The notes beneath the pieces are model-generated. The model was not told the origin of the DNA, ran no database searches, and saw only the letters and a list, made by a program, of their open reading frames with translations. From Octopus vulgaris (Eukaryota), in the NCBI GenBank assembly GCA_951406725.2, contig OX597825.1, positions 27,280,001-27,344,000 on the forward strand: a stretch of DNA of 64,000 bases. The letters are read 5' to 3'. Shown here piece after piece: positions 13,191 to 62,009 of the stretch (positions within the stretch are counted from its first letter, which is position 1; every line of letters starts with the position of its first letter). Position numbers and translations under genes: made by a program.

Positions 13191-13243
13191 CGGCAAAACA
13201 TGGCTGATTATAAAGAAGTCGGCTTCCCAACTACATGGTTCTG
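13191..13243 (+). mobile_element. 5' head fragment of the CORE-type SINE (family C)
   Basis: TGGCTG..T.AAGAAG..GCTTCCCAAC.ACATG.TT matches the head at 51843-51885. Confidence 0.5.
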
Positions 13244-13259
13244 TCGCCATTCTATAATT

Positions 13260-14071
13260 TGAATTTCGTGCATGCAAATTTTAATTTTTTAAATTTTGTC
13301 GAACTCACGTAATAGCAGGATCAGTTTATCTCCGACTGTGAGGAAAACTGCACCATGACGCAATTCACTCTGCCTGAAATTTGGGAACGACATGCTGTAC
13401 TGCTTGGCATTTGCGCGGGAAGATTCCATATGAATATTTCAAAGTGTTTGGGTATCAATCTGAGGAGAGTGCAATCTACGTACATGTACGGATAGTGACA
13501 GAAACCAAACATCCACTCAACCTTATAGTGTTTGGAGTGATCACGAGTAATGGCAACGTTATACCATTATTCATTTTCCCACACGGCCTCAGACTTAACA
13601 TGCAGGCTCACATCAAGTGCCTGGTACGTATGTAGTGCTGAAGTAGGTGGCTGCTGGAAGACACTATGTCTGGCAACAAGATTCTGTACTGTGCACACAA
13701 GCAGAAGAATCCAGTCATGGCTATCAGGCAACTTCTGCGACCACATCACCCCTATCATCCAGCCGCCTAACCATTATTATATGTAGAGCGCAGTTGAACG
13801 AGAGACTAACAAAAATCTTGTAACATTAAAGATGAACTGAAGGCAAGCATTATAGCAGCATTCACCAACTTTAACAAGGAGACCGTCCAGAAGAGATGGA
13901 AGAGAATTAGAAGTCGTATGGAGGCCATGGTTGAAATCTATGGCAATTGAAGAGAATAAATTTACTCTTTACTATTTCGAGATATTTTTATGTAATTTTC
14001 GGAAATATATCTGTCAAGTATATTTTCATTTTTGTGTAATTAAGGCGACAGTTTATTCACCGCACCCTGTA
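13260..14071 (+). mobile_element. Tc1/mariner-superfamily DNA transposon relic (DD37D/maT-like transposase remnants)
   Basis: TKHPLNLIVFGVITSNGNVIPLFIFPHGLRLN, YVWQQDS, HTSRRIQSWLSGNFCDHITP..PPN; right end ...CACCCTGTA. Confidence 0.8.
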
Positions 14072-14444: not shown

Positions 14445-14445
<1 letters not shown>

Positions 14446-15400
14446 AATGTGAGCAGGACAAAATATACAAGTGGGCTGAAAAGAATAGCATGCAGTTCAA
14501 TGCTGAAAAGTTTCAAGCTTTATACTATCAGCATGCAAAACTAAATGCAATACCCAATAAATACACTGGACCTGGAGGGATTGCAATCCCAGAGGCACAA
14601 TCAGTGCGAGACCTGGGTATTTACATGAGTGATGATGCAACCTTTCATGTGCATGTTGCTAAATTGGCAATGAAATGTAGGCGGCTGACCGGATGGATTC
14701 TTAGAACATTTAGAACAAGAGACCAGAAAACCATGATGGCCCTCTGGAGGACACTTGTCCTAAGCAACTTTGACTATTGCTCTCAGCTATGGTCACCATC
14801 CAGTGTCAAGTTAATCACAGAACTTGAGGCGATCCAACGAAGCTACACGAAGAAGATAGCCTCTGTGCAGCATATAAGCTATTGGAAAAGACTCAAGAGA
14901 TTGTGACTCTATTCCTTAAAGCGTAGGCGAGAAAGATATACCATAATATACATCTGGAAGTCCTAGAAGGACTTGTCCCAAACTTTGGCATCGAGAGTTA
15001 CACAAATGCCAGAACTGGGCGCCACTGCATAGTGCCAAGGACTCCAAATTTGCCATCAAGATGTAGGACAAGATACTGTGATAGCCTGGGCTTCTGACGC
15101 CCACAGCTCTTCAATATCCTCCCGAAGAACCTAAGAGACCTGCATGGAGTGAATGCAGATGTCTTTAAAATGAAACTGGATCTCTTCTTGTCAGGTGTCC
15201 CAGATGAACCAACTTCACGGCAAGAGGTGCAGATGAGGGCAATTGCATCAAACTCTCTCATGCACCAGATGGCATTTGCTAAAAAGCATTCGTGAAGTAA
15301 AATCATGTAGCAAAACCAAATGGCGGTGCCCCAGCATGGCCACAGCTTGTGAGCTGAAACTAAATAAAATAAATTAAATAAATAAATTAAAATAAATATA
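14445..15400 (+). mobile_element. 5'-truncated CR1-group LINE copy (RT C-terminus, 3'UTR and A-rich tail)
   Basis: WAEKNSMQFNAEKFQAL...VRDLGI...GWILRTFRTR...DYCSQLWSP, collinear with 27125-28030; in-frame stops; flanked by (AT)n(GT)n and a short (AT)n. Confidence 0.93.
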
Positions 15401-15429
15401 TATATATAACAGGCTTGTCATTTATAAGT

Positions 15430-15642
15430 GTGTGATTATGTTCGTACCTCGCAACCGTTTGACAAATAGTGTTCGGTTATTTTCATGTCTCCTTAACTTA
15501 AGTGGCACGCCGAAACCCACAAAGGAACAGCAAATGATATCAGGCTTGAAAACAGTAAATACTAGGGTCTGTCATTTCGACTAAACCAAATGAATATGGT
15601 GCGCCAGCATTTCTAAAATCTAATGACTCCAACAAGTAAAAC
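15430..15642 (+). mobile_element. 3' half of family C SINE, degenerate
   Basis: Similar to 52120-52325 and 54500-54690, including TTTCGACTAAA...GGTGCGCCAGCAT...AATGACT. Confidence 0.6.
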
Positions 15643-15927
15643 AAAATCACTGATGAGAAGGCAGAGATCTGCAAATGAAAACGATACCCATGAGGTAATA
15701 ATTTACATTTCGATTGCTCGCGTGTATGAAGGCGTTCGTCCATATACATCTGATTTTAATTCGTATCGCCTATTCTCCTTAATAATCTTTATGCATAGTT
15801 TATCACCACTTGTGAGTCGTTCGAGGTTCTCCCAGAGTCAGAAATCACAGAATTGCATTTTATTCAACTGAGAAACTTCAATGAGTTGAAACCCCGAATC
15901 AATGAACGGATTTATATTACAAGTTTC

Positions 15928-22450: not shown

Positions 22451-22459
22451 AAGATGGCG
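22451..22459 (+). promoter_or_regulatory. YY1-type motif AAGATGGCG at the putative LINE 5' end
   Basis: Matches the YY1 consensus (CGCCATNTT reversed) about 10 nt after the (TA)n tract, analogous in position to the YY1 site of human L1. Confidence 0.5.
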
Positions 22460-22983
22460 CTGAACTAACAACAAGTGTGTTAACGTGTCTCTCCTAAATA
22501 TTAAAGAAGTCCTTCCAGAGATCGATGTTATCAGAAGCGAAATTGTCTGCAAAGCGAATATAAGTGATAGTACAACAAGTCACTGTATTTGAGAAGAATA
22601 TTTTCGCTTTTGATGTAGTATTTGCAACTAGAACATACTCGCGTGTTAAAACGCACGTGTGTTACTTCCCGAAATCGAAGTGAATTTTATTCTTCGTCTG
22701 TGAATCAACAAGACACAGGATATTTTCGTTTTTGATGTATATCTGCGTGTCCTGAAAAAAGCCTCTGAAAAATTTGCTGCTTAATACCAAATCGCTTAGG
22801 AAAATATAGAAAGTATCGTGAAACTGTTGCATGTGCTAAATCGAAACTCAAACCCCTTTTGTTTACAAAGTGCGCTTGGGGAGGAATATAAAAGGTCTGT
22901 CTTGTCTATCTATCTTCCTTTCTTATAAAAAGGAATCACGTAAGTACTCTCTGTCAGCCGGTAAGGTAAGATATTATTTATCT

Positions 22984-23281
22984 TGTTATCATTAGTGTTC
23001 TTTCAAACAGAAAATAATTAAAAAAACAAAAAAGATATAAAAATATAAAAATACGCGGTATTCTATCTTTATAATCTTTATAATTTCGTGCCTGCCACGC
23101 ACTCTCTCTTTCTCTTTTTTACATTTCTATTTCTATCTCTCTCATACATTTTTATTATTTGTTATCATTAGTGTTCTTTCAAACAGAAAATAATAATTAA
23201 AAAGATATAAAAATACGCGCTATTCTATCTTTATAATCTCTCCCTCTCTTTCTTACATTTCTATTTCTATCTCTCTCATAC
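22984..23281 (+). repeat. Imperfect tandem duplication (~175 bp spacing) in the LINE 5' region
   Basis: TGTTATCATTAGTGTTCTTTCAAACAGAAAATAAT...AAAATACGCG.TATTCTATCTTTATAATCT...ACATTTCTATTTCTATCTCTCTCATAC occurs twice. Confidence 0.85.
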
Positions 23282-24116
23282 TGTTTATACCTTATCTGTC
23301 TCCCCATCCACCAGACCCTCTATTTCCGCTCTCACTCTCCCCTCCTCCCTCTCTCTCCCTCTGCAATCGTTTCTCTTTCTGCATCTCTCTCAGATCAACT
23401 TTCTCTCACCTCACCCCCTCTCTCAGTTCCTCAACTTCACTCATTCTCTCTTGTATCTATATACCGCCCTCTTTCTCTCTCTCTCTCTCTGTTACTCCCC
23501 CTCCCTCTCTCTGCCTCTTTCCTCTCCGCTCCTTCACAGGTCAAACCCCTTTTCCTCTTCCCCTTCTGTCCCCTTATTTCTTTCTCTACACCACCCTCCC
23601 TGTCCCTTTACTACACTCTGTTGCGCCCCCTCTCTTCCTCTTCCCCCTTTTTCCTTCCTACCTTTCCTCTCCCTGTTCCCTCTAAGGCTCACCACCCCCC
23701 TGTCTCTTTTTTCCTCTCTCTGTCTCCTTCCTCCACACCACCCTCTCTGTCCCTTTACTTCACTCCCTGGTACCTCTATCCTGCCCTCTCTCTCTCTCCC
23801 TCTCCATTTCATCTCTCTCTTCCTCTCCATTTTATCTCTCCGCCTTTCTTCTCCCTGCCCCCCTAGGGTCCACCCTCTTGTCTCACTTTTCCACCCTGTC
23901 CCTTTCTACTACACCTCTATCCCGCTCACTCTCCCCCTGCTGACCTGCCATTCTCTCACCTTTCTCTTTTTTCCCTCTTATTTTCTCTCTTTCTCTCTTC
24001 TCTCAGGAAAATCCCCTCGTCTCTCTCTCTATCCCCCCCTGGCTTTTCTCCTTTCTCTTCTCCCTCTCCATATCTCTCCTTCTCTATCTCTCTCTCTGTT
24101 TCCTATATTTCACTAG
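23282..24116 (+). other. ~830 bp polypyrimidine tract ending in a 3' splice-site-like CACTAG
   Basis: Almost purely C/T on the + strand; AG at 24115-24116, ATG at 24123. Confidence 0.6.
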
Positions 24117-24122
24117 AAGAAA

Positions 24123-25018
24123 ATGGCAAGAAACTGGTCTGCGAGAGAGGTGCAATTGTTCGTCCGCGCTTGGAAGATCGCTGAGGACGACTCGCCGAAC
24201 GAAATTATTGCTGCGGCGCTGAAAAGCAACAATTTTTCGAGAACCACCGCCCAGATAGAGCGAAAGAAGAGAGAAGTTATCCGTTCGTACGCTCTAATCA
24301 GGCAACATGTGGACACCCTGGACATCATCCTGGGAGGTGACGGCAGCAGGGAGGGCCAAAAGGATGAGGAAAGCATCCAGAGCCAAATGGAGAAGCCTGG
24401 AACACAGGGAAACGATGACACATGTCCAGCTTCCAACACCACAACTGAAGACCAAAGAGGTGCGATGGCCGCAAGAAAGGAAAGGCACCCTGGAATTGAT
24501 GGGAAGCAGGAGGTAAAGGGTGACAGAATCAAGGCTAAAGGAAGCCCTGTCCAGAGAAAGCAGAGGGACCCCAGCAAAAACTGTAAGGGCAGGGAAAGAA
24601 ACACCTGCAAATTCTACCTGAGGGGGACTGCTGGTACGGCGTTGAAGGTGCAAACTGTCGCTTTGCACATCGGAGGCCCTACCAAAACCGCACGGACGCG
24701 AGACAGAGGTCCCTCCCTCAGGGAGAACAAAAACAAAAAGTTAAAAGAAGGGAAAAAAGCGCACTGACCACTACTGAAAGACGGTATGCAGATGTGGTGC
24801 GCGGAAACCCAACAGGTGGCCAGCTTCACCCAGATGTGAGAAGGGCGGCAGCTGAACAGCAGTCTTTTTTGTGCATGGCACAAAAAATTGTTCAGCAGCT
24901 GACCTGGCTACAAGCACAAAGCTGGAACTACCACCACATAAGGCCACCTCCAACAGATGCAGGATGGCCACCACAGACACCAACACCAACACACACACCA
25001 CAAAAATATTTCTACTGA
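24123..25018 (+). CDS. LINE ORF1: Myb/SANT-like N-terminus plus CCCH zinc finger; one frameshift at the G5 run 24622-24626
   Basis: RNWSAREVQLFVRAW...IIAAALKSNNFSRTTAQIERKKREVIRSY. Adding one G gives CKFYLRGDCWYGVEGANCRFAH and an open frame to TGA 25016-25018 (298 aa). Confidence 0.75.
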
Positions 25019-27974
25019 ATGTAGGAGGGCTGCTGCGCGGAAACTGTAAAAAGAAAATTTCATTCCTGAGAGACCTTGTGACATGCAATCAAGCTATATG
25101 CATGGCACTCACAGAAACGCATCTTGAACCCGATATAGGTGATGCAGAAATACACATGCCGCAATATGCAGTCATACGCACAGATAGAAAAGGGAGGAGC
25201 CATGGTGGAGTTGCAATGTACATCCGAGATGACCTCACGCCCCAGGTCCTGCTGTCATATTCAAACTCAGTATGTGAAACTCAAATTGTACACATAAGAC
25301 AACTGAATATCGTCATATGCACTACATATCGCCCACCAGACGCCCCAAAACACTCAGGCATGTTTGAAGACTGCCTAACAAAAATAGGAGAAGTCCTCAC
25401 CAACCTTGAACAGCACAACAGTGTATTCTTCATGGGTGACTTTAACCTCCCCAATGTGGAATGGCCTGGGGGCAGATGCTCCCAGGGATGACACACCATC
25501 AGCAGGCACAGGTGGAGTCCCTGCTCCATCTCACAAATACCTCTTTCATGGAGCAAATAGTTCTGCAACCAACAAGGGCAGATAATATACTGGATCTCTG
25601 CTTTACAAACAATATGGATATTATCCATAATGTTAATGTGATGCCGACAATGATCTCGGATCACAACATAATAGAGCTGTCTACGTATGGAACAAAAGCC
25701 CCCGCAGACACACAGCCTATACGAAGCACCCACCATCTCTCCAACTTAAACTTTCATAAAGCCAACTGGAAGTCGATTGAGAAAGAGATCCTCAAACAGG
25801 ATTGGCCTGAATGTCTCTCCACACCGGACATAAACATGAAACACAAACACTTCATGTCCATAATACAAGCCATATGTGACAAATATGTCCCAATGTGCAG
25901 GGCCAGCACACACAAGAATAAAAACAGGATCCCTAGAGAAAGGAGGATTCTTATGAGACGACGGACAAGGATTGCAAACCGCCTGAGCAAGCACACCAAA
26001 AGTGGTGAGAAGTCTCGGCTCGAAAGAATGCTAATGGAAACTGAGAAAAGTCTACATCAGTCCCATGAAAAGGAGAGAGCAGATAAAGAAGCTTGGGTAA
26101 TAGAAAATATAAAATCAAACCCTAAAGCTTTCTTTAAGTTTGCCAAAGAGACAGCCACAGTGCACCAGAGAATAGGACCTCTCTTCCAAAAAGATGGCTC
26201 TCTCACAGGAAATCCCACGAGGATAAGTGAAATACTGAACGAACAGTTCCAAAGTGTATTCACTACACCTCTAGGACACAGGCAAGTAAACAACCCAGAA
26301 GAATTCTTTGCCACTTTACCAGCGGCCAAAGAGACAAAAATTGAGTACATCAACATCGAAGAAGATGATATCACACTAGCCATTGATGAGATTGACACAA
26401 ACTCAGCTGCTGGACCTGATGGATTCCCAGCGATCCTTCTCAAATCGTGCAAACGAGCCCTTGCAAAACCGCTACAGCTTCTTTTTCAGAGCTTTCTTGC
26501 AAGTGGTAAGCTCCCAGTCAAACTGAAAGAGGGGGTAATATGCCCTATCCATAAGGGAGGTAGCAGAGCAGATGCTAAAAATTATAGGCCTATCTCTCTG
26601 ACCTCACACATCAGCAAAGTCATGGAACGAATAGTCCGTAAGAAACTAATCATGTTCCTTGAAGAAAATGACTTACTGTCTGACACCCAGCATGGATTTC
26701 GACCAGGTAGAGGCTGCCTAACACAGCTCCTGCAACACTATGACTGGGTGTTGAAACAGCTACTAAATGGCTCAAATGTGGATGTAATATATCTTGACTT
26801 TGCAAAAGCCTTTGATAAAGTCGACCATGGTATGATCTGTCACAAACTGCGTGGTCTCGGCATAGGCGGGAAACTTGGAGAGTGGCTGCACAACTTCCTA
26901 AAAGACAGAAAACAGGCAGTTGTGAGCAATGGAGCCACCTCCAGGGAAACGCAAATAACAAGCGGTGTCCCACAGGGCACTGTCTTGGGGCCACTGATGT
27001 TCATAGTGGCCCTTTCAGACATGCCTTCAGTTGCTACGATGACCACCCTTGCTAGCTATGCAGATGACACAAAGGTCTCCCACGCAATACAGAACCCTGA
27101 AAATATTGCGCATCTGCAACATGAGCTGGACACAATATACAGGTGGGCTGAGGACAACAACATGCAGTTTAATGCAGGTAAGTTCCAGGCCCTGCGCTAC
27201 TGGCACACAAAGGTAAATGACGTGAAGACTGGATACACTGGCCCAGGAAGAATTGCAATCCCTGAGTCAAAATCAGTGCGTGACCTGGGCATTGACATGA
27301 GCAATGATGCATCTTTCCAAATGCATATTGCTAATCTGGTGATAAAATGCAGACGGCTAGCTGGATGGATTCTCCGAACTTTCAGAACAAGAGAGAAGGA
27401 GACACTGATGGTCCTATGGAAAACATTTGTCCTCAGCCGCTTGGACTACTGCTCCCAACTTTGGTCACCACACAATATAAAACAAACAGCAGAACTCGAA
27501 GCAACTCAGAGAAGCTACACAAAGAAAATCGTCTCAATGCAAAATGTCAGCTACTGGGAAAGACTGAAGGTATTAAACCTCTTCTCCCTGGAGCGGAGGC
27601 GGGAGAGATATGCAGTAATATACATCTGGAAAATCCTGGAGGGTCTTGTCCCAAACTTTGGCATTCAAAGTTACTCCAACCGCAGAACGGGGCGCCGCTG
27701 CGTGGTGCCAAGGATTCCAACATCACCATCAAAATACAGGTCCAGATACTGCAACAGCTTGGGTTTCAGAGGACCACAGCTTTTCAACATCCTCCCTAAA
27801 TGCCTGAGAGACTTACATGGTGTGGATGTGGGTTTCTTTAAAACTAAACTGGATCTCTTCTTGTTGGGAGTCCCAGATGAACCTACCTCACGACAGGAGA
27901 CACGGATGCGGGCAGCAGCATCGAACTCCCTTGTTGATCAAGTGCCACGTATCAGAGGTGGATTCACAAACTAG
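24964..27974 (+). CDS. LINE ORF2: APE endonuclease plus reverse transcriptase; one frameshift near the G5 run 25468-25472
   Basis: APE motifs LLNVGGL, LTETHL, RTDR..GGVAMYI, YRPP, GDFNLP, NILDLCF, SDHN; RT motifs NYRPISLTS, QHGFRPGR, YLDFAKAFDKVDH, GVPQGTVLGP, YADD; CR1-type C-terminus SYWERL...SLERRR. Corrected length 1003 aa. Confidence 0.95.
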
Positions 27975-27987
27975 TGTGGCTCATTCA

Positions 27988-28774
<787 letters not shown>

Positions 28775-31565: not shown

Positions 31566-32987
31566 AAACATATAGGAACATATCTAGTTGTGCAAGTATG
31601 CGCACGATGAAAAAAATGCATAAAACAAAACATACAATTTTGCACGTATACATACATATATACATACATACAAAAATACCGTTGTTTGAATTTCGAATAC
31701 AGCAATCTTGGAGCTATGTTTGAAATCGGCTCTTTCTCTATTGGCAAGGAATATTGAAATAAAACTGAATAATGATATATATATATATATTAATCAGGTC
31801 ACAACGATCATAGTGAGGAAGAGACTGAGAGAGGGAAGGACAAGATGTTAATGACATAGTACTGGATTCTTGATTTGCTGTGTTTAGTATGCTTATAGAA
31901 CGTTTACATGTCTAGACATTAAATTACGATGTTACAATATGTTTATAAATTTTATTGAAATAATACCTGCAGGTATATACGATATATGCATCTACTTGTT
32001 AAATTCTATATTTGAAAAGCATTTATGGGTTCCTTCCTACAATATAAAATATGAGAAATGCTTTGAAGAATGTGGTTAATAACATGCATAGAGGAAGAGG
32101 CTATGATGTTAAGAAATAAGACTTTAACTGTTAAGTTAATAACCAAAATTGAGATGTGATTGATTATTTTTATTGCTATGCCCTTGTCATATATATCATA
32201 CTTCTAGTTTTCAGAAACACATGAAGATGGTGCACCAGCATTGCAGCAATGCAATGACTGCAATAAGTAAAATAAAAACGCGAAAAATGGTAGCTTCTTC
32301 TTTTTGTCGTGAAGTTTTGAGTTTAGTTTTATATTTTACATTCATAGAAATATGTTAATTTCTGTATGACAATGTTCTTTATCCCACATAGTACTCAACC
32401 GATGTCATAACAAACGATATATAGAAATTATAACAGAAGATGAATGAATAAAATATGGCAAATAAACGAACGTCGATCATCGCCGTCTTGTCTTTCAAAT
32501 ATAACCACTCCTTGAGAAATAAATTGAAAACTAAAATTTTCTAATATAAATAATACAATATATTTATTGAATAATGTCATGTCGAGCGTACTTTTGCATT
32601 GGTTGCTGCAAATATTATATTCGTTAAAGACTTGTAGCTGATTATTTGCTATGAGAATTGATATAACAAAATCTAATTTGCTGAAGGTGTACTCGAGAAA
32701 AATTTATATGGGCGTGCCGAAACCGCAGGCATTCATTATCTTTTCATGAAATCTAATGAATCTGAAGCTATGATTCTACACATTTTAATTGCTCTAAGAT
32801 ATGTTAGAATAAAATCCATAATCTGTATATGAAAAATTTAGAAAATAAAGATATATGTTATATATTTTTGATACAATTTATACGAATGTAATGTACCTGA
32901 AGCGATTATTCTGACCATTTTGATTGTTGTATGACACTGGGTTAAAAACCAACATATATAAAATGAAAATGATTGCATACGTATTAT

Positions 32988-36000: not shown

Positions 36001-38544
36001 TGTCGACATAAGCTATTTATTCTCTAAAAAAAATAATTGTTTATAATTCTCATTATTCAAATAAGTGAACCGTGCATAGATGTTACCAGATAGATTGAAC
36101 AGCTCAAAGTCAAGTCAACTTTACTTGAACTGTTAGCCTTGTTTCACCGTTGAAAGATCATGGACAGCTCGATACATCTACAAACAAGCAGCCGCATCAT
36201 TTGCTACAATACCTTTAGACTTATGATATTTTACGAAAATAATGCAAATTAAACGTTAAAATTACTATTCGACCGACTTCGGTTCTTGCTTATGAATGTC
36301 TCAAAGCTAATGTTACTTTCCTTTAGGACGTTAGCCATATATTAACCATGTGCTCCCCAACTAGCAAAACAAAAGCAACAAAATGATTGATGATTTTGTA
36401 ATGTCCAGTTTCAATCTGTTCTGGGAATAATAATTAATTTCGAAAAGAGTTTTATACCACTATTTTATGCTTTTAAATAATTATTGCATTCCCCTGTCAC
36501 CTTTGCAAAATATTGTTCCGTGTCAACGAATGTAGTTAAATAACACAGACTGTAATCGATATGTTCAAGGGTGTCTATTTAGAAAATTCTACTTAAACTT
36601 AGAAACCTCATTGTTTTCTGTTTCGATTATAGACAGTTTAGAAGCGTCAAAAAAACGAGCATTACTATATTAAGCATTATATATATCTATAAATTTAAAT
36701 TATTAGAAAATTTGTTTATTAACAATTCTTTGCAAGTGCAAATGTTGAAGAACGACTAAATATTCAAGAGTGCTATATGTATCTATTTTTCAAATGTATT
36801 AAATGTCTAATTAAGATGAAATATATTCAAAGAGTGCTCTAACTCTGTCTTGTTAGATATCAAGTTATTATCGGTTTTTCCCTTTTTTTGTGAAGTATAG
36901 ATTTTATTTTCTAACAGAGGGTAGCTAGTTTTCAGACTATAAAGTTAAGAATTTCCCTAAGCGACAACATGTTTTAGACTTCACTGAACGGTAAATTAGG
37001 TAAGTGCCATCTACCATAGTCCATGGAGAACGAATGGCTTGTAAATGAAATAAGTCAGGGAAACTGCAAAAGCAGGCAGAATATGTGTGTGTGTGTGTGT
37101 GTGACTGTGTGCGTGTGTTTGTGTGTACATGCGTACGTGTGAGTCTATTAGGGTGTCCTAGTGTATGTCTCTACACCCCTTAAGAATAGTTGTTAGTTTG
37201 TTTAGGTTACAGAAACATAGTCGGAGTATGGCTGCTCTGCAACAACAGCCAATGAATATAGTTGAAGAGAGAAAGAATTGACTGCACGTAAATAAGGGAA
37301 CGAGTCACCTAAGGAAATCCAATGTGGACGTAACAAACAACTTACAGTTACATTCTATGAGTGTCTATCGCTCATTCTATAAGAATGTCCTAACGATATA
37401 CTCATTGCAGTTTAAGAAACAAGTTTATAAGCACAGTACAATCTGTAGTTTTACAGACATACACATGAAACTCTTTGGCAGTTTGTGTTTATTCTTGTCC
37501 GGGACTTGGCGAGGTACCAAGTTTAAAGACGATTAATCTTTAGATTTGTAATTGCTCCATGTCACTAGAGATATGGCAAATAAACATAACTTACTTTATT
37601 ACAAAGTACTAATTTCAAACGTTTGCCTACTGCTGCTTTGGAAATATGATAAATATATTTTACAGTTCTGCTAGTTCTACTTATGGAGCCGCGACTATGA
37701 TGGTGTGCTGCCTTGTTGATTTAATAGAAGAAATCGACGTATCTTTAAGTCTAATACTTGTCAAAACACCTGTGTCTTTTAACAAAACGTTTAGATACGC
37801 CTTAGTAAAGAATGCAAAACCGATTATCAATCCTAGGAGAGTGCAAACAGAAGCACAATGACACATACATACATGCATATATGCATACACAAACACACAC
37901 ATATTCGTTCGCATACCCGTTAAACCTGATTGCCTACCGTAAAATATAAAAAAGACTATTTTCAAGTTATCGTAATTCGATAAGAAAACATCCGCAACCT
38001 ACCGTCTCAATTAACGACTGTTATCCCTGAAAGTGTTTTTTAGTATTTTTTACCACGGATTGATTGAAATTTTGAGGTGTTTCTATTATTTTGCCCAACA
38101 CCTGTAATGCATATATAAATCCGTGCGTGTATATAGTATGGGTTCTGCATACTTTCTCTATAACAAATTAGCTAAGAAGTGATTAGCCTTCCCATGGCTT
38201 CAGTCGAGAAGCACATGTCTACAGATCAGCGCAATGGAGCTAAACCCAAAATTCATACATGCAAGGGACAATTCTAACTATACACAAGTCAGAATTTCAT
38301 TGTTATTGATTAAAATTGATGTTTGTTTCTCTTTCTATGAGGCTGAGAGAAAATACATGTTATTCTGAAAATTGAAATGAGATTTTGGGCTTACATCAAC
38401 AAGGGAAAAAAGTGTTAGAACTAAAATTTGAGGCACATAATAGTTTTAGCATCATTTGAAGTTTACTTTATCTTTTTACAATACTGACTCAATAAACCAT
38501 TGATATTATTGATACAGCTTAATTTTTGTATATTATTTGTGGGA

Positions 38545-40439: not shown

Positions 40440-40610
40440 GTGCATGTGTGTGTATGTATGTGTTGGTATGTCTTTCTAATTTTGTTTGTCCCTACCACAG
40501 CTTCAAAAACGATATTATCCCCTTTACGCCCCCTCAGTGTACAGAGTCTACAAAAAAGACCAACAAAGTAAGTACCAGGCTCAAATAAATGTCCTGGGGG
40601 CGATTTCTTC
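40440..40610 (+). mobile_element. 3' half of family C SINE, degenerate
   Basis: GTTTGTCCCTACCACAGCTT...TAAGTACCAGGCT...GTCCTGGGG.CGATTTCTTC, similar to 54500-54625. Confidence 0.5.
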
Positions 40611-40624
40611 TCTTAATTTTTATG

Positions 40625-42370: not shown

Positions 42371-42451
<81 letters not shown>

Positions 42452-42457
42452 GATGAT

Positions 42458-43240: not shown

Positions 43241-43284
43241 ATATGTTTATGTGTATATATATTATTGTAAGATCACAAAACTTA

Positions 43285-44200
43285 TATTAAAGCGCTTCAG
43301 CCATGCAGTTGTTGTCATGCTGGAACACGAGCGTGGCCTTTCTGATTTCCTCAGAAATTCAGCTGCTCATGTCTGTACGTCATGTCGGGCTGTTGGTTCA
43401 TCTGTATAGTGGAGAGGATGATGGTGAGTTCCGTTTTGAAGACATCTCCTACCACCTTATGCAGATTTCTTAATTTTTGTGGCAGGGCATTGAAAAGTTG
43501 TGGCAATTTGAACCGTAGACTATTGCAGCAGCTGGTCATAAATTTAGAAGGTGTGGATGGTAGTTTGAGTTCAATGCAAAGGCAGCCGGTTCTGGTATTT
43601 GTATAACTCTCAATGCTGAAATTAGGAACTACCCTCTCTAGAATTTTCTATATGTAGATTATTACATATCAGTCGCGCCTTCACTCCAGAGAGTAAAGTT
43701 GTAGGTTTCTCAACCTATCTTTATAGCTCATCCGTTGCACTGTTTCAATCTTTTTAGTGTCGAGGCGTTGGACTACTTCAAGCTCCGCAGTTACTTTGGC
43801 ACTATATGGTGGCTCTGAACAAAGGTTCTCCACAGGGTCAACATAGTTTCTTCGTCTCTCGTCTTGAAGGACAACAGTATCCATCCTTCTAGTTGTCTGG
43901 ACTCTGCTGTAATCTTGGTAATGTGCATATAAAATGATGCATCATTGCACATGCTGAACCCCAAGTCTTTTACTGCCCGTGACTCTGGGACTGCAGAGCC
44001 TTCAGGTGCTGCATATACAGGTTTTAGTGCATTTAGAAGCTGATAGCGCAGTACTTGAATTCCAGAATTAAATTGCATGTTGTTTATTTCGGCCCACTTT
44101 TATATCGAATTCAGTTCCCATTGCAAGCTTCCGACGTCATCTTGATTTTTATTGCATCTGATAAATTTGTATCATCCGCATAGCCAGTGACAGTGGCTCT
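43285..44200 (-). mobile_element. Older 5'-truncated CR1-group LINE copy
   Basis: GYADDT, NNMQFNSG, VKDLG, GWILLSFKTRDEETMLTLWRTFV, SYKDRLRNLQLYSLE, CCNSLRFKLPQLFNALP; 3' motif GTGTTCCAGCATGAC...GCTGAAG. Confidence 0.88.
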
Positions 44201-44204
44201 GTCA

Positions 44205-44595
44205 TATCATCATCAACATACGAAACCAGATAGTGCAACAACTTGGATTTCAAAGGAATATCATCAATATACGAAACCAGATAGTGCAACAGCTTGGATT
44301 TCAAAGGAATACAGGTTTTCAATATCTTCCCAAAATGCCAAAGACCTATATATGGCGGATATTTATGGTGGATATTTATGGGAGATATTTATGTCTTCAA
44401 AAGAAGACCGTATCCCCTTCTATCAAGAGTTCCAGATGAACCTACCGCGCAGCAGAAACGAAAGTGAGCAGCAACATCAAACTTCCTCAGTAAACAAATG
44501 TTACGTATCAGAGGATGTTTCAAGGGGTGAAAGTTTAGGAAAGGTGGCGCCAATGCTCCAGCACTGCCACAGCTGCTTTCGAGGTGAACTAATAA

Positions 44596-44600
<5 letters not shown>
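44205..44600 (+). mobile_element. Short 3' fragment of a CR1-group LINE ending in (AT)n, with an internal ~51 bp tandem duplication
   Basis: GTGCAACAGCTTGGATTTC...CCAGATGAACCTACC...GCAGCAACATCAAAC...CGTATCAGAGG...TGCTCCAGCACTGCCACAGCT, collinear with 27720-28030. Confidence 0.8.
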
Positions 44601-45829: not shown

Positions 45830-46125
45830 GGGCCCCTTCGAAGCCTAGCCAAGCTCATGGGCCCGGTTTCTGTGGCGTATGTGTTCCCCGCAGCTGGTCG
45901 GGACGCCAGTCCATCGCAGCGTTACTCAAGAAACAGGACGAAAGAGTGAGAGAAATTTGAGGCGAAAGAGTACCACAGAGGTCGCTACCACCCCCTGACG
46001 GAGCCTCGTGGATCTATTGGTGTTTTCGCTCAATAAACACACACAACGCCCGGTCTGGGAATTGAAACCGCTATCCTCCGACCGCGAGTCTACTGCCCTA
46101 ACCACTGGGCAATTGCGCTTTCACA
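45830..46125 (-). mobile_element. tRNA-derived SINE, head A + tail X
   Basis: Closely matches 40953-41250. Confidence 0.9.
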
Positions 46126-47636: not shown

Positions 47637-47720
47637 ACAACACAGTCTGTTGATTACAATTGAAGTTGCTGATAAGGAGCTACTTCCATCACACACAATA
47701 CACACACACACACACACACA

Positions 47721-51670: not shown

Positions 51671-51834
51671 CATACATACAGGTGCACACACACACACATA
51701 CATTAATCTTCACCATATAGCGGTTCACCTGTCGTTATTTATTCTTTAACCTTATGCCGATTCGTCCGTGGAATTGTTTTGCATTTTAAATAAAATAGAT
51801 TTATACAAATTATGAAAATAAAAAATATATGCAA

Positions 51835-51999
51835 GCGAAGGAGTGGCTATGTAGTAAGAAGCATGCTTCCCAACCACATGTTTCCGGGTTCAGTCCCACT
51901 GTGTGGTACCTTCAGCAATAGACTTCTACCGTAGCCTCGGACCGCACAAACAATGTCTTGTGGGTGGATTTGGTAGACAGAAACTGAAAGAATCCCGTC

Positions 52000-52088
<89 letters not shown>

Positions 52089-52325
52089 TGTTTGTATTTA
52101 TGTGTGTGCGTGTTTGTGTCTGTGTATGTCCCCTTAACTGTCGCTTGACAACCGATGCCGGTGTGTTTATTTACCTATTACTTAACCTTTCGGGAGAAGA
52201 GACCGATAGAATACGTACCAAGCTTACAAAGAATACGTCTTGGGGTCTATTTCTTCGATTAAAAAGCAGTGCTACAGCATGGCCATAATCAAATGACTGA
52301 AACAGATAAAAGAGTAAAAGAATAC
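51835..52325 (+). mobile_element. Family C SINE: tRNA head, CORE-like body, internal (AT)n(GT)n, CR1-like 3' tail
   Basis: Box A-like TGGCTATGTAGTAAG, box B-like GGTTCAGTCC; tail GCAGTGCTACAGCATGGCCA...GACTGAAAC. Confidence 0.85.
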
Positions 52326-54189
52326 AGTAATGTTTCTACTTCGCGAAATTTCAGGTATCGCGGCGGGTTTTGGGACGAAACAACCGCAATACTCGAGGGA
52401 TTTAATGCTTGTGTGTGTATACATGCACACATGCACACAAACTCACAAGCACACAGACAAACAAAAACACACTCACGCACATATATCGAGAGTAGGAATG
52501 GTTTGGGCCACGAATGATCTAAACTAACAGTTATGATGTTTGAGTGCTCCAATAGATAAGCTACTAGGAACGTAGTTGAAAACTAGGGCTGGAGTTAACG
52601 ATCTGTAAACTACTTCCGAATCAGTGGGTATAAATTACAGGGAGTGGAAAACAAAGACAAGTAGAACAAGCTTATCAGAACATTTAAGTCATTTTAATGG
52701 TAAATCGAAGACAATATGAACAAAACAAGAACGTATCAACATCAAAATAATGCAGCATCGTTACATCCCCGTCAATAATTATAACGCTGTGAGACGTTAT
52801 AGATATTGCAATGGGATATACTCGATGGGGTTGTAAGGGTAATGTATTTTATACAACTATTGTACCCATTTTGTCCTCCTGAAGTGGTCAGTATATCGTA
52901 AAGTATGTTTCTGCATATTTCCATAGTCTTTGCGAAATTGGGAATATAGTATAAAGAAAACTAGGTAGAAACAAAAGAAATTTCTAGATCACGTATGAAA
53001 TCCCTGTCTAAAAACGAATAAAGTTTAATCGTACTAAGACAAACGCTTCATAAACACATTCAGTTGCCCTTTTTAAAATAATCCTTATATGTTCTATACG
53101 ATTTAATGAACATTTGAACAGAATATTACGGGCATTTTGCTATTCCAGGTCTGATCGTCTCGTAATTCCCACATGTGAGAATTGAATCAACATTCTGAGT
53201 TATGTTAGGCAGAAACTAATTATATGAATGTTGCTAATCATCCAAGTAAAATTAGATTAATAAACTAGATCGCGAAGTATGCTGGTGGGAACAAGGGATA
53301 CATAGAAGTATAACGTATTTCGTGATAAGAAACTTATAGTGATGCTGACTGCAATAACAATAACATTATATGCTTGCAAAATAAATTAGCCAAATAGAAG
53401 AGAAGCTAGCAAGCAACAATACGCTCTGAAATACTCGATCCTAGAGTGTACACTATGTTAAAATAAGAGAATATTTCAAAATATTCTCTTACATTATATT
53501 CAAAATCTGTAAAAAAAAACCATCATGCATTATATGATATATCACGGTCTATTCATATGTTAAATTACTGAATGTCAGAAGTGCTCAACCGAGGAAAACA
53601 CATTGGAAAACAAAGAGAGATAAATCTATGGCGCACAGCAATAATTCGATCGACCAATGTTTTAAAGTGTTCAAACCGGACAGAGCCGAGAAAATAAAAT
53701 TAGAAAACGCAAAAGGAAATAATCCAATTCTATATCACTTATCAAAAAGGATATTTTTTACAAATATCGTAAATCGTAATCTTTATTTTCTTCCTGTAGG
53801 GAAAAGAATGTAAGTATGAGTGCGTCTATGTTTACATTTGAATATATTTAAGTTTACCAGCAATATTGTGGAATTTGATAAGGTTTCCTTATTTACAAAA
53901 TTTCTTCGAATTGGTCTCTGTGATATCAGGAGCACTGGATACACAATTACTGACACGTAGCATTTCTCTTTAAAGATGATTTTTTATAGCTAACTTCATA
54001 CATAAATACACACAGATACAGAGTGGTACAAGCAAACACTCACACACACAAATACACGCGCGCACACATTCACACTGGCTAAGGCAGTCAAGCACGACGG
54101 CATTGTCAAGAAATTTGGTGGGTGGATGAATGCTATAGCTAGCCAACAGAGGTCTCATACGCTATAGGGGTTCAATTCAGTACTATAAA

Positions 54190-54346
54190 CTACCCTCCAA
54201 CCACATTGTTCCGGGCTCAGTCCCACAGCATGACACCTTGGGAAATTGTCTTTTACTATAGCCTTGGGCCGACGAAGGCCTTGTGTGGAGACTGAAAACT
54301 GAAAGAAGCCTGTCGTACATATGCGAGTGTGTGTGTTGTGTGTATG

Positions 54347-54391
<45 letters not shown>

Positions 54392-54422
54392 TGTATGTAT
54401 GTATATATATATATATACAATG

Positions 54423-54476
<54 letters not shown>

Positions 54477-54690
54477 CATATTTGTGTGCGTGCCTGTATA
54501 TTTCCCCACCAACGCTTGACATCCCATTCTGGTGTGTTTATGTCCCCGTAACTGAGCGGTTCGACATTGTTAAAATATGTACTTAGGCTTACAAAGAATA
54601 CGTCAAGGGGTTGATTTCTTCGACTAAAACACCTTCAATGCGGTGCTCCAGCATGGCCGCAATCATAAGCCTGAAACAAGTAAAAGAATG
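54190..54690 (+). mobile_element. Family C SINE copy
   Basis: GACACCTTGGGAAATTGTCTTTTACTATAGCC (CORE-like), internal (AT)n, tail GCGGTGCTCCAGCATGGCCGC...CCTGAAAC. Confidence 0.85.
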
Positions 54691-55354
54691 TAGATATGAA
54701 AGACTACAAATGTACATATGTATACAAACGTGTGTATATGTGTGGGTGTGTGTCTTGATATGTACGTATGGACGTTCATAAAATTATGTCGCTTTTATAG
54801 CTAGTTTTGTGTTATAATAATTATGCACATAGTTACTGATAAGCTGCTCTTTTCTTCAATAATTTTAACCACTGCGTTCTATTCATAGTACTTGGTTCTT
54901 TTGAAATTAAGAGTGCATATATTTCTGTGAGCTTATCTACGTGTATGCACATTTGCATTTGCAAAAGTGTATTTTCATAGATTTCTTTAATTTAATGCAT
55001 ATACGTTGAATTCATTCAAATTTCTATGGTTAGTGAAACTGTCAAGACAGTTCTTTTTATAGTCTACTTAATATATTTTGTTGATCGTTAAAACCGAAAG
55101 AATTTAAAACAAATCCATAGTATTAAAAACACTTCCAAAATATTGCATATTTCTTGATTTGTGTTTGGTTACTTTCATGAAAAGTTATGTACTTGCCCAG
55201 ACATGTGAGGAGACATGATAAATCTCACCATGTGAGATGCATGAAATAATCAGTTGGATGCCACCACTCCTAACGGACGATGAATGAGTCTTGCTGACGG
55301 TCAAGAGAGAAAAGTAGTTTCGTGCGACAATGAAGCTAATTGAATTGAATCAAT

Positions 55355-55695
55355 GCTGCTGAGACCCCCTTCGGTAATGACTGACCGTGGGATTGTACCT
55401 AGAAAGTTACCCTCCCAGACACAAGTCCGGGTAAGTTTGTTTATGGAAGACCAGCAGTTACCCATTCATACCGCCCTCCCCTCTGCACGCCACCAGTATT
55501 ATCCAAGGGAAAGACAACGGACGATACAGCTTGACACCTGTGACGTCGCGACTCATTTCTACAGCTGAGTGAACTAGAACAACGTGAAATACATTGTCTT
55601 GCTCAAGAACACAACACGCTGCCTAATCCGGGATTCGAACCAACAACCTCACGATCGTAAGCTCGACACTCTAGCCACTGAGCCATGCGCCTTCA
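55355..55695 (-). mobile_element. tRNA-derived SINE, head B + tail Y
   Basis: Reverse strand GAAGGCGCATGGCTCAGTGGCTAGAGTGTCG...GGTTCGAATCCC; tail shared with 47460-47636. Confidence 0.85.
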
Positions 55696-56210
55696 CATAC
55701 TGAATTGAACCACATCCTAATATATGGTAGCTTTGATAAAATTGTGCCTTCCAGATGTTTGAGAACGAATCATATATTGTTACAAATATTGGTGCACCTG
55801 ATTTTAGTAGCAGCATGATGGGTGCACCTAAATATAGTAGCAGATTCAGAAGAGGAAAACTAGTGAGCGGTGGAGAGGTCTCTTAGATAGCAGGCGCCAT
55901 TCACATCAGCTCGGACGTAGCTCTGGTAACTTTTCAAAGACGGTTGCGTTGATATCTTACAGAATACCATACTGAAACATAGAATGATAGTGAGAAAATT
56001 CTTTTGTGTTTTCCCGCACAAAAAAAAATGGTGGATGAGCATTCATTCTTATATTTTCACAGCTGAGATTTCTAATTATGTGTGTGGGGTGGGGATGTGC
56101 ACTTATGCTTACATACAAAAAAAGCATTTAACATTTCTTCTTGAATGTAACACTCGCTCTGTGTTCCCATCTTCAGAACCCTCACTTTTCATGCCTGTAT
56201 TACATGCAGT

Positions 56211-56480
56211 GTGGAGGTACATGGCCTAGTGGTTAGAGCAGCGAACACGCGGTTGAGGAATCACGGGTTCGAATCTCAGACCGAGCGATGTGTGTGTTTA
56301 TGAGCGAAACACCTAAGCTCCACGCGGCTCCGGCAGAAGGTAATGGCGAATTTCTGACTCTTTCGCCACAACTTTCTCTCACTCTTTCCTCTCGCATCTT
56401 GCAGCTCACCTGCGACGGACTGGCGTTCCGTCCAGGTGGGGAACCTATATGCCGGGGAAACCGGGAAGCATGGTTCGAGA
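56211..56480 (+). mobile_element. tRNA-derived SINE, head A + tail X
   Basis: GTGGAGGTACATGGCCTAGTGGTTAGAGCAGCG...GGTTCGAATCTC...CTGCGACGGACTGGCGTTCCGTCCAG. Confidence 0.88.
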
Positions 56481-56544
56481 AGAAACATTGCATGTAGTCC
56501 TCATATTTGCACTAAGCCAAATCAGAAATTCCCAAGCAATTCAA

Positions 56545-56570
56545 TTCGGCAGTTCATATATTAAAATTGG
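56545..56570 (+). pseudogene. Possible U6 snRNA 5' fragment
   Basis: TTCGGCAGTTCATATATTAAAATTGG versus recalled U6 TTCGGCAGCACATATACTAAAATTGG (23/26); the rest of U6 is absent. Confidence 0.4.
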
Positions 56571-57962
56571 TTTTTAACATTTGCTTTGTTCGCAAATTCA
56601 GTCTCTTTCTTCAATCAGGCGTATTCCGATTGTGCTTACATACACAATCATTGTTAAACGCTGAAACGAATAGAAATTCCCATGTAAAAACAAATATGGT
56701 TGTGAGGATTTCCTAATATGTACGTATGTGTATACCACTGTGACTTCATTATGGTCTTATATTTTTCCCTCTGTATGTGTGTCTCTCAGTGGGTTATGAC
56801 TGCGTATGGTTACATGAATGTATATTTCTGCAACTATATGAAGACTAATTATTTTCCTTCTTCATAAAACTTCACGGTGTTTTTTTTTTCTTTTCAGATT
56901 ATGCACTTAAAATAATTGTGCCGTATAGCATCATGACCTTTTCAGTCAGCCGAAAGCTGTGGTTTGTTTAAGAGTATTAATACATTTTTGATAACAGAAA
57001 TCGTTTGAAGAAAAACAGCAATACACTTTATTGATTACATAATCAATCAAGTACTCATTAGACTTCAATTTCACGCTGAACTAATCTTTTCCCAATTCAT
57101 AACTCAACTCAGCGTAGCTTTCTCCAAAATAAAAACATCAAGTTAATATTGGCATTCATTTACTTACTTATTTACTTTTTTTTTTATTGTATCTCAGATA
57201 TGATAGGGTTAATAATGATAAAAAAAAAACTTGCTAAGCAATAACTAATCTTTTCAAATTTCTGCTTATCACAATGCATCCATTTTATGTGCTACGATTA
57301 TAATTTTTACGTCGTTTAACGGTACATGTTAGGTCAAATGTTTGTGTATTTCAGTAAAGATTTTTTTTCTCTTATATTTCTTCGCTTATAGTGCACATAT
57401 TTGGTTAGAGTGCACTATTGAACTTTTTAATATTACATTTTGTACAATGATTGAATAGTCTGATCATTTTATGACATGGTTTGAGTGAAACCTATAAAAG
57501 TAATAAGACACGTCTAGAGATATCATTCGCTTGCAATGTTGACGTAATTATTCATATTTTCTAAGTATTGTGTGAGAAGGACTTCATTAATATGCGATGT
57601 TTCTTTTCATAATGTTATGTTTGGTCATCGTTGAAGATGGAATAGTTTAGATTCTATGGTTTCTATTGTGGTTTGTAATATTCTTTTGAAGAAAAGGAGC
57701 CGAATATGCATTTAAGAGACAGCAGGAACACTATAATAATTTTCTGCTTATGGGAGAGAATGTCTTCGCTACTTCAAATCACTGCGGAAAGATATATCTT
57801 TACATATGAAATGGACCACAAAAAAAAAGATTTGGCATGGAATATTTCGAGTCAGGAACACAATATGTTATACATCCCTATCTATCTATCTATTTATCTA
57901 TGTATCAATCTATATCTATCTATCTATCATCTTTATCTATTAATCTATATACATATACGTAT

Positions 57963-58312
57963 AGGCGCCAGCGTAGCAGTGTAGTAAGAAGATTCCCAGC
58001 CACTCGGTCCTGGGTTCAATCCTATTGCATTTGTCTTCTACTATAGCCTCGGGCCGACCAAGGTCTTGTGAGTGGATTTGGTAGACAGAAACTCAAAGGA
58101 ACCCATCGTGTATATATATGCATATATATGTGTGTATGTGTGTCCTCGTGTCTCTTGTTCTCCCCCACCATCGCTTGACAACAGATGTCGGTGCGTTTAT
58201 GTCCCCGAAATTTAACGTTTCCGTAAAATGGACCGATAGGCTTACAATGTATTAGTCTAGACACGATTTCTTCGACAGAAGGTGGTGCTCCAGAATGACC
58301 GGGCGTGTAAAA
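57963..58312 (+). mobile_element. Family C SINE copy
   Basis: TGTCTTCTACTATAGCCTCGGGCCGACCAAGG.CTTGTGAGTGGATTTGGTAGACAGAAAC; short internal AT/GT tract; tail GGTGGTGCTCCAGAATGACC; followed by (AT)n. Confidence 0.85.
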
Positions 58313-58328
58313 GTATAAATAGTAAAAG

Positions 58329-58421
<93 letters not shown>

Positions 58422-58428
58422 TTATATG

Positions 58429-58478
<50 letters not shown>

Positions 58479-59254
58479 AGTATATATACATATACATATA
58501 TATATGTATGTATATATATATACATATATCATATATGTGTGTGTTTGGTTGTGTGTATGTCTGTTTGTATTGATATAGAAATGTACGCCCACGCGTATAT
58601 GTGAGTGCATTGTTTGAGCCACATTGTCGCCGTAACTTCAATTTTAGTAAGATAAATCAAGGAGATCCATCTCTACTTTTAGAAACTTGTTATATTTCTC
58701 TTGACAAATATCCTAATAGTAAGAATAATATGTTTTTTTATATCATATTTACACATAAACGTAAATCATAGGAAAGCGTAACAGCAGTGTTTCTATTGTT
58801 TTTTAGCTTAAATATGTTATTCTTCAGAGTAAAAATCGTTTTATCTGTTCCTTTCTGTCATTCGATTGAAACTATAAAGTCATTTATCATTTTTATTACA
58901 TGTTAGATTACAATAGTTATTATAAGAGTCGGATTACAAAATCAATACAATTTAGAGCTATATATAGATGTAGTACATATATGCGGACCATTATACATTG
59001 TATTATATTTATCCCACCAGTGTTGATCATTTGAATACCAGTGATGTACGGCAGCATAGAACATAAACATATTTTCGTCATTCAATTCAGCTGTCTTTTA
59101 GGTTTTCGTTACCATAAATAATAATGATTATAAAATATCTTTGTTTCATTCCTTGGCACTTATTATTAATCCAGCTTCCCCCACTATAGGGAACAGCCTT
59201 TTCTCTGCTGGAAGCTTCAGATTTTGGTCTATATCTGACCGTATCCATACATAT

Positions 59255-59953: not shown

Positions 59954-60111
59954 TTTCTTCTTCTTCTTCTTCTTCTTTTTCTTCTTCTTCTTCTTCTTCT
60001 TCTTCTTCTTCTTCTTTTCCTTCTTCTTTTTTCTTCTACGTCTTCTTCTTCTACGTCTTCTTCTTCTTCCCCTTCTTCTTCTTCCCCTTCTTCTTCTTCT
60101 GCTTCTTCTTC
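59954..60111. repeat. (TTC)n microsatellite
   Basis: Directly visible. Confidence 0.95.
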
Positions 60112-60525
60112 TATCGCTGGAGATGTACTACGGTGGCAGTTGTTCACCAACAGTGAACTAAGGTAACACCCCTTATTTTGGAGCACCATACGGAGTATTC
60201 GAGCGGTTCCAAGCATTGCTGTTTTCTGTAAGTGCCTCACCCTAATTGCAGCCCCTATTTCTTCCAGATACTTCTCAAGATTTTTACTCACTTCTCCAAG
60301 GGCTCCGAAGATATTGGTACTAATTCCATCTTTTTCATCGACCACAACTGCTTAACCAACCTGTCATATCTATCGACTTTTCGTTCTTCCTTATCCCATA
60401 CCTTGTTATCAGCTGAGCATTCTATATCCATGATCCAGCATCGTTTGCATTCTTTCTCAATTCACACTATGTTTGGATTCCTATTCTTTATCTCATGGTC
60501 GCACTGAATCCCAAAATCACATAGA
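60112..60525 (-). pseudogene. 3' fragment of an RLE-type (R4-like) element
   Basis: GALGEVSKNLEKYLEEIG...HLQKTAMLGTARILRMVL; CWIMDI; same family as 62010-63410. Confidence 0.8.
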
Positions 60526-60617
<92 letters not shown>

Positions 60618-60621
<4 letters not shown>

Positions 60622-60720
60622 TAGTTTTATTTTTATTTTTATAGCGTGCTTTCACTTCACTACCGAGCGCAGCTCTGTGTGCCTTGGGTATGTGCTGTGA
60701 TTTGTTGTGATGCTCTGATG

Positions 60721-60722
<2 letters not shown>
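60618..60722 (-). mobile_element. Isolated 3'UTR copy (~105 bp) of the Dong-like element, flanked by (TAA)n
   Basis: Near-identical to 60803-60903. Confidence 0.9.
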
Positions 60723-60802
<80 letters not shown>

Positions 60803-60807
<5 letters not shown>

Positions 60808-61825: not shown

Positions 61826-61847
61826 TATTATTATTATTTTATTATTA

Positions 61848-61917
<70 letters not shown>

Positions 61918-62009
61918 TTCATTGTTGTTGTTGTTTTTATCATTATCATTAATATTATTGTTGTTGTTGTTGTTATCATTATCATTAATATTATTGTTGT
62001 TGTTGTTGC

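Follow-up and report, generated by a model that had tools for sequence, protein, structure and literature searches.

A CR1-type structured tail and an internal AT/GT tract in a SINE family of Octopus vulgaris

Introduction

The stretch of Octopus vulgaris DNA considered here (assembly GCA_951406725.2, contig OX597825.1, positions 27,280,001 to 27,344,000; 64,000 nucleotides (nt), hereafter the window) is AT-rich animal DNA, dense in repeats, in which a long interspersed element (LINE) lies in (AT)n and a short interspersed element (SINE) carries both a tail resembling that of the LINE and an alternating tract of its own. The locus raises the question of whether the two elements form a pair and whether, as a first-pass annotation of this DNA had proposed, the pair manufactures its own landing pads and so helps explain an extreme microsatellite load. 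According to the available part of PMC13282606, SINEs account for about 12% of the O. vulgaris genome and LINEs for 13%, and stringent LINEs mobilise SINEs through shared 3' tails, as the consulted portion of PMC3747384 describes. Our analysis probably points to a SINE partnered with CR1 elements and to a CR1 that favours AT repeats, and it leaves the self-seeding loop open as a minor source of such repeats among several. All counts concern this one 64-kilobase (kb) window, with four LINE copies, genome-wide rates being outside its reach.

Results

The SINE and the LINE share a structured 3' end

The two 19-nt words on which the proposed partnership was based are found at 27993-28011 in the near full-length LINE (LINE A) and at 54642-54660 in a SINE copy (S2), with 18 of 19 positions identical, and the related SINE tails reported at 52266-52302 and 58281-58300 are present as well. 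Allowing up to three mismatches, the motif has five matches in the window versus none in each of 100 dinucleotide shuffles, and two of these, in a second LINE tail (15325) and in a lone SINE tail (32229), add to the ones already cited. The homology between SINE and LINE is confined to about 43 nt, over which seven copies align gap-free and SINE and LINE tails are identical at 23-29 of the 43 columns in decayed copies.

Despite differing at 12 of 43 positions, the LINE A and LINE B tails both form the same two adjacent hairpins, and their folding compared with shuffles gives z values of -2.15 and -2.55. In the alignment of the seven tails, 74.7% of 91 cells pair (22-45% in slid controls) and seven both-side changes occur, a number reached in 5 of 500 shuffles; such changes affect 5 of the 13 pairs, three of which belong to hairpin 2, whose letters are not the same in LINE and SINE. 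Two observations weigh against a shared structure. Folded singly, all five decayed SINE tails do no better than shuffles (z from +0.7 to -0.7), which is expected of copies so decayed, and the shuffle controls for covariation are modest (5, 17, 25, 31 and 368 of 500 across measures, with seven related sequences). Aligned to one another, SINE and LINE tails nevertheless bear out a common structured 3' end of about 43 nt with compensatory pairs. The features of a stringent-type SINE/LINE pair, namely 3' homology and conserved stem-loops with compensatory changes, thus appear to be present, with modest statistical support for the compensation.

A CR1 family rather than the young LINE copy is the likely partner

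The second open reading frame (ORF2) of LINE A encodes an APE endonuclease (Pfam PF03372) and a reverse transcriptase (RT; PF00078). The RT stretch closely resembles, by eye, those of O.bimaculoides_1_LINE and O.sinensis_104_LINE, which the tree-based table in the available part of PMC10294476 classes as Jockey/CR1, and LINE A may by proxy be placed in the CR1 clade. Its ORF2 has a single named relative, from Argonauta hians (58%), among the 120 matches listed with an organism, and the relatives of ORF1 come from O. vulgaris or O. sinensis in six of six cases (44-96%). The three other copies, B, C and D, were recovered by translated search and are 63-74% identical to A (Table 1). At its N-terminus, ORF1 of LINE A (24124-24950) holds a weak Myb/SANT-like domain (Pfam E value 0.009, below cut-off; Atlas 0.88, a lead), which may be a candidate reader of AT repeats, and Cys/His clusters are spread over the frameshifts of this frame.

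LINE A runs through 842 codons free of stops, for which P is 0.013 at 5% decay, while the halves of the SINE copies S1-S3 diverge by 9-23% from their own majority, which makes LINE A younger than these SINE copies. Counted over the 43 columns, neither LINE A nor LINE B is closer to the five SINE tails; the terminal repeats differ among LINE A, LINE B and the SINE, and the letters of hairpin 2 differ between LINE A and the SINE. A closer tie of the SINE tail to LINE B was considered and rejected: gapped scores are higher for B in five of six cases, an edge due to A-rich ends, but the column count is tied in four and stands at 26 versus 24 in one. The youth of LINE A, together with its differing hairpin 2 and terminal repeat, makes the partner a CR1 family or older subfamily and not this particular ORF2, on which the first-pass annotation had settled; at the level of the CR1 family, the shared structured tail upholds the partnership. 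In the Bov-B/Sauria pair, as far as the accessible text of PMC13295347 goes, the terminal repeat of the SINE also differs from that of its partner, so that a differing repeat counts against the LINE A copy and not against the family.

The internal tract alternates in every copy and is seldom a long (AT)n

All five two-part SINE copies possess an internal tract in which purines and pyrimidines alternate (81-100% alternation), and their longest perfect AT runs measure 28, 46, 9, 4 and 6-7 nt. The tract that had been announced for every two-part copy is therefore there in 5/5 as an alternating AT/GT sequence, but only 2/5 hold a perfect AT run of at least 12 nt; the further claim that each insertion leaves a ready (AT)n is unsupported for the same reason. 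The tract of S4 consists of (GT)n only. That of S5 is split by an insertion of about 200 nt (38105-37905) beginning at TA, which we take to be a putative Tc1/mariner-like end, although no partner terminal inverted repeat (TIR) was found for it. An (AT)n tract (58333-58522) directly follows S3; an older SINE copy enclosing S3 was considered and dropped, as the profile found no flanking halves.

The 11 SINE pieces of the window total 2595 of its 64000 bases. The copies are dispersed and 366-546 nt long; T4 runs are absent from S1 and S3 and occur once in S2. A B-box-like motif is seen in S1, S2 and S3, and neither ARAGORN nor Rfam returned a transfer RNA (tRNA) or RNA-family match for the SINE. 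Words shared between flanks reach 4-6 nt at most in 3/3 copies, which are old, against a chance 95th percentile of 7, so that no target-site duplication was retrieved. The SINE profiles were built from the three cited copies S1-S3 (best score in the reversed window, 2.6 bits). Iterated profiles contain the decayed SINE copies, and their scores for those copies are circular, as are those of the tail profile for its seven training copies; global identities among decayed halves (56-67%) overlap those of shuffles (mean 59, maximum 67), and membership rests on the profile E values. Scans of bacterial and archaeal genomes showed no SINE or LINE copies beyond the window.

Both orphan right halves (40464-40624 and 15422-15645) start at the internal tract, as if breakage or truncation favoured that point; the profile detected no left half for the former. 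A second SINE-like family, at 15924-16349, 17940-18450 and 20066-20914, comprises a head plus tandem units of about 185 base pairs (bp) and not single copies; it presumably resembles Deu/Nin. A module common to the right half of the SINE and this tandem family was rejected, the similarity being not significant in 15/15 pairings.

Three of four LINE 3' ends lie at AT runs

A perfect AT run of at least 12 nt is found no more than 40 nt from the tail in three of the four LINEs, a proximity that holds for 5.3% of window positions (P 5.7e-4). The AT sequence stands on the 3' side in these three copies and on the 5' side in one. (AT)n borders LINE A at either end (22160-22451 and 28055-28726), LINE B has (AT)n(GT)25 on its left and (AT)6 on its right, and C and D abut each other, so that target repeats flank a single copy in four on both sides. 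The description of the LINE as sitting in (AT)n accordingly applies to the 3' ends of three copies, but on both sides to LINE A only. This association fits both targeting of AT repeats and their seeding by the LINE. A TIR element (21612-22159) lies in the left (AT)n tract of LINE A, which favours a tract older than the insertion. On the other hand, the 3' ends of the SINE are found at an AT run in only 1/6 cases, which speaks against a common AT-seeking enzyme serving both elements, although the SINE copies are older.

TIR-type elements are seen at TA in or beside AT tracts at 21612-22159, 42431-43262 and 38105-37905, two of them adjoining LINE ends, and AT tracts act as shared landing sites for LINEs and TIR elements. 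The 670-nt nearly pure (AT)n at 28055-28726, after the youngest LINE, could owe its length to expansion or to an assembly error. LINEs C and D (43290-44600) are different CR1 copies that meet at their 5' ends, and their junction carries a tandem duplication of 51 bp (44209-44311); independent insertions or a two-template event are options for this arrangement.

One LINE is probably nested in a SINE tract

A SINE right half begins about 27 nt past the end of LINE B on the same strand, for which the chance is about 1% over four LINEs. Upstream of LINE B stand, in order, the (AT)n(GT)25, a 160-nt segment (14190-14348) that is single copy in the window, then a (TACA)n block and a decayed mobile element and, 2.2 kb upstream of the right half, a SINE head fragment. 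This fragment scores 11.7 bits, versus 1.8-8.0 for the best hits in 10 shuffled windows, and ranks next after the S1-S3 windows among 1418. The mobile element has no Pfam or NCBIfam label and its left TIR was not found; we take it to be Tc1/mariner-like from its putative motifs. More generally, Pfam, NCBIfam, PDB and a homologue search gave no family label for the DNA-transposon remnants, whose labels here are putative. The 276 codons of LINE B contain at most three stops, for which P<=0.03 at 30% decay, while the adjoining right half departs by 37% from the S1-S3 majority, so that LINE B looks younger than this half. The whole of 13201-15645 is probably one old SINE with three insertions in its tract, LINE B included, and one deletion. 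Three points count against this: the head fragment is short (E 0.018-0.06), about 110 nt of the left half are missing, meaning that nesting requires a deletion, and the 37% divergence may include a subfamily difference.

Alternatively, LINE B would not be nested, the head fragment would be unrelated, and the AT flank of LINE B would have received a SINE truncated at its 5' end, the break at the internal tract being due to annealing with AT/GT repeats of the target. The second orphan right half, which also starts at the tract boundary and has no detected left half, agrees with such a history, and S3 indicates that SINEs are able to sit in AT tracts. We nevertheless regard it as unlikely, given the apparently greater age of the right half compared with LINE B and the presence, on the same strand and 2.2 kb upstream of that half, of a head separated from it by nothing more than a mobile element, the 160-nt segment, microsatellites and LINE B. 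For LINEs A, C and D, the profile search disclosed no SINE half alongside; the placing of LINE A inside a SINE was likewise discarded, neither flank carrying a SINE half. Nesting of the LINE in SINE tracts, which the proposed loop supposes, is hence probable for one copy in four and does not extend to the cited full-length LINE A, nor to C and D.

SINE tracts make up a minor share of the microsatellites

The window contains 21 AT tracts with 1661 perfect AT bases, of which two tracts and 129 bases lie inside two-part SINEs, while 1011 bases fall to five LINE-flanking tracts, among which are the longest two of the window (659 and 261 nt). Counting all arrays of period 6 or less, the simple-repeat load is 4979 bases; 313 of these fall in the tracts of two-part SINEs, or 795 if the tracts before orphan halves are added (6-16%), and 1199 (24%) flank LINEs A-C, this last set overlapping the 795 bases at the tracts around LINE B. 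The profile search placed no SINE piece alongside the long trinucleotide arrays of the window. Since decayed flanks could hide tracts born in SINEs, the SINE shares are lower bounds. With 313-795 of 4979 bases and 2 of 21 AT tracts, the SINE/LINE loop finds no support as the explanation of the extreme load attributed to it, and these figures suggest a modest effect in the window.

Further dispersed repeats occur at 40964-41249, 45841-46127, 47137-47335 and 56210-56467; the segments 47450-47642 and 55357-55558 go together, as do 5918-6379 and 61271-61733, and 60161-60524 and 62050-62423. Some dispersed repeat families adjoin long trinucleotide arrays (1250-2125, 59955-61995).

Table 1. Positions of the SINE, LINE and neighbouring elements in the window
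Feature	Position	Strand	Description
SINE head fragment	13201..13243	+	31/41 identical to S1 head
Decayed mobile element	13245..14069	+	Between head fragment and microsatellite block; relatives at 52-58% map back along it
LINE B	14445..15395	+	5'-truncated sister-subfamily copy, 74% identical to A; tail 15320-15362
SINE right half with tail	15422..15645	+	E 2.6e-9 (profile from S1-S3 only); tail 15593-15635
LINE A	22452..28055	+	Near full-length, CR1 by proxy; ORF1 from ~24124, frameshifted; ORF2 in two pieces, 24856-25491 (APE) and 25446-27974 (RT); tail 27988-28030; 8-nt terminal repeat x3
Lone SINE-type tail	32212..32273	+	
SINE S4	36945..37220	+	Decayed two-part copy; left half E 6.9e-4, right half weak, E 3.1
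SINE S5	37660..38270	-	Decayed two-part copy; right half E 3.9e-7, left half E 0.03
Orphan SINE right half	40464..40624	+	E 8.4e-8; behind 350-nt mixed microsatellite block; tail decayed
LINE D	43290..44205	-	5'-truncated, back-to-back with C; tail 43334-43292; AT-rich flank, no AT run of at least 12 nt
LINE C	44209..44600	+	3' fragment; decayed tail, then (AT)24
Weak SINE left piece	51.1 kb		Found with S1-S3 profile
SINE S1	51833..52325	+	tRNA-like head, left half to 51999, internal tract (AT)14(GT)27 at 52000-52109, right half, two-hairpin tail (CR1-type) 52263-52305; B-box-like motif 51886-51896
SINE S2	54175..54695	+	Internal tract 54317-54483, longest AT run 46 nt; tail 54637-54679
SINE S3	57963..58330	+	Short internal tract 58108-58139, longest AT run 9 nt; tail 58279-58321

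Discussion

The account that we consider probable is that of a SINE partnered with CR1 and a CR1 favouring AT repeats. An old, abundant and putatively tRNA-derived Octopus SINE would have been copied by the RT of a CR1-clade LINE family recognising its two-hairpin tail of about 43 nt, as the shared covarying structure suggests; the tail itself would stem from a sister or earlier subfamily of CR1 and not from the young LINE A (22452-28055). A short proto-microsatellite of alternating AT/GT may be present in the SINE master, and slippage after insertion would enlarge it into long (AT)n in some copies and into (GT)n or nothing in others. The CR1 family, whose association with AT microsatellites is observed, would favour them as sites through either an endonuclease preference or annealing of its 3' end, so that SINE tracts would sometimes be hit, probably by LINE B, as they would be by TA-targeting DNA transposons. 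Among AT sites, as in the load as a whole, such tracts would be a minority; it is beside the LINEs themselves that the longest AT tracts are found.

A stronger version, in which CR1 owes its landing pads mainly to SINE-borne tracts and these also rank among the main causes of the microsatellite load, is hard to credit on the present counts. It can draw on the probable presence of one LINE in four in a SINE tract even though such tracts are only 2 of 21 visible AT tracts, on the occurrence of the tract in 5/5 two-part copies, on the bases occupied by SINE pieces (2595/64000) and on decayed SINE flanks that may be invisible beside other tracts; it runs up against LINEs A, C and D, which have no SINE half alongside, against the restriction of long (AT)n to 2/5 tracts and against a SINE share of 6-16% of simple repeats. 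Equally unlikely for now, its fullest form would be a three-part closed loop in which an AT-seeking CR1 copies a SINE whose tract becomes a preferred CR1 target, SINE bursts build safe sites for later waves of CR1 and TA-transposons, much of the microsatellite load in octopus results from these bursts, and the Myb/SANT-like ORF1 perhaps acts as the AT reader. If true, a strong loop would offer a testable cause for this load and an example of a parasite that prepares safe sites for the element helping it.

It is also conceivable, while rather less than probable, that the LINE itself makes the (AT)n, by slippage of its tail at target priming or by later expansion, in the manner of the CR1 seeding known from snakes, the SINE being incidental. 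The 1011 of 1661 perfect AT bases in LINE-flanking tracts, with those of 659 and 261 nt, speak for such an origin, as does the 3' side being occupied by AT in three copies and the 5' side in one; LINE A, however, has AT on both sides and a TIR element in a left tract that would predate the insertion, and A and B bear different terminal repeats between tail and AT. This origin and the CR1-partnered SINE with an AT-favouring CR1 are not exclusive. Finally, (AT)n could be a tolerated sink for any insertion, with a CR1 devoid of real preference and no loop. Unrelated TIR elements do crowd the same AT tracts, SINE ends reach AT runs in 1/6 cases only, and passive accumulation has been described for Waldo-A/B near CA repeats in the part of PMC3812793 at hand, but the enrichment of LINE ends at AT runs (P 5.7e-4, LINE and SINE ends being the families so compared) renders this improbable.

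Among known systems, the closest are the stringent pairs of bivalves, BivaV-SINE2 and BivaCORE-SINE1 with CR1-14_CGi (PMC4824008) and the HCD SINEs paired with CR1 and CR1-Zenon (PMC11481361), each known here from part of the paper. In these pairs a tRNA-type SINE is matched over its last 35-61 nt to a CR1-group LINE, with stem-loops and compensatory changes, an arrangement that recurs in octopus with a putatively tRNA-type SINE; compared by description, the present case differs by its octopus host, its internal AT/GT tract and a LINE tied to (AT)n. The tail motif had no match in the searched supplements of mollusc SINE/LINE papers, bivalve tail sequences being shown as figures in the portions consulted. 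For O.bimaculoides_1_LINE and O.sinensis_104_LINE, similar in RT by eye, the available part of PMC10294476 mentions neither a partner SINE nor a target preference. The open literature searched, a scope outside which lie subscription papers, Repbase, Dfam and SINEBase, contained no octopus SINE/CR1 pair or (AT)n-associated CR1, and no octopus SINE with an assigned partner LINE was met in the literature, a term search in the accessible part of PMC3747384 giving no mollusc entry. The octopus SINEs OK, OR1 and OR2, known here by name only from parts of PMC4758252 and PMC4824008, or repeat-database entries may well already include the present family. Its interest would be to tie one abundant octopus SINE family to the CR1 clade.

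Regarding the tract, the Alu-in-Alu hotspot (PMC2836564, in part) is similar in that the internal simple sequence of a two-part SINE draws insertions by the machinery of the partner LINE, mostly in sense orientation. In that A-rich linker, however, it is mostly SINEs that are nested, and the LINE, L1, is of the relaxed poly(A) type, whereas in octopus the tract is AT/GT and the single probable nested element is the LINE itself. The MESC SINE of Haliotis with its (CA)n likewise illustrates the expansion of an internal repeat in a mollusc SINE, with no link to a partner's target mentioned in the available text of PMC4758252. Insertion into simple repeats is shared with Waldo, Mino, Kibi, Koshi and Dong; the list in the consulted part of PMC3812793 includes no CR1 or (AT)n-targeting LINE, so that a CR1 associated with (AT)n would be new to it, and the octopus association is loose (both flanks in 1/4 copies). 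Snake CR1-L3 (PMC8303610, in part) also combines a CR1-clade LINE with an extreme microsatellite load, but there the LINE seeds the repeats and no SINE-borne target is involved. Taken together, it is plausible that we are dealing with a known kind of SINE/LINE pair whose unusual part is its (AT)n-associated CR1, and with a minor loop akin to both Alu-linker nesting and CR1 seeding in snakes.

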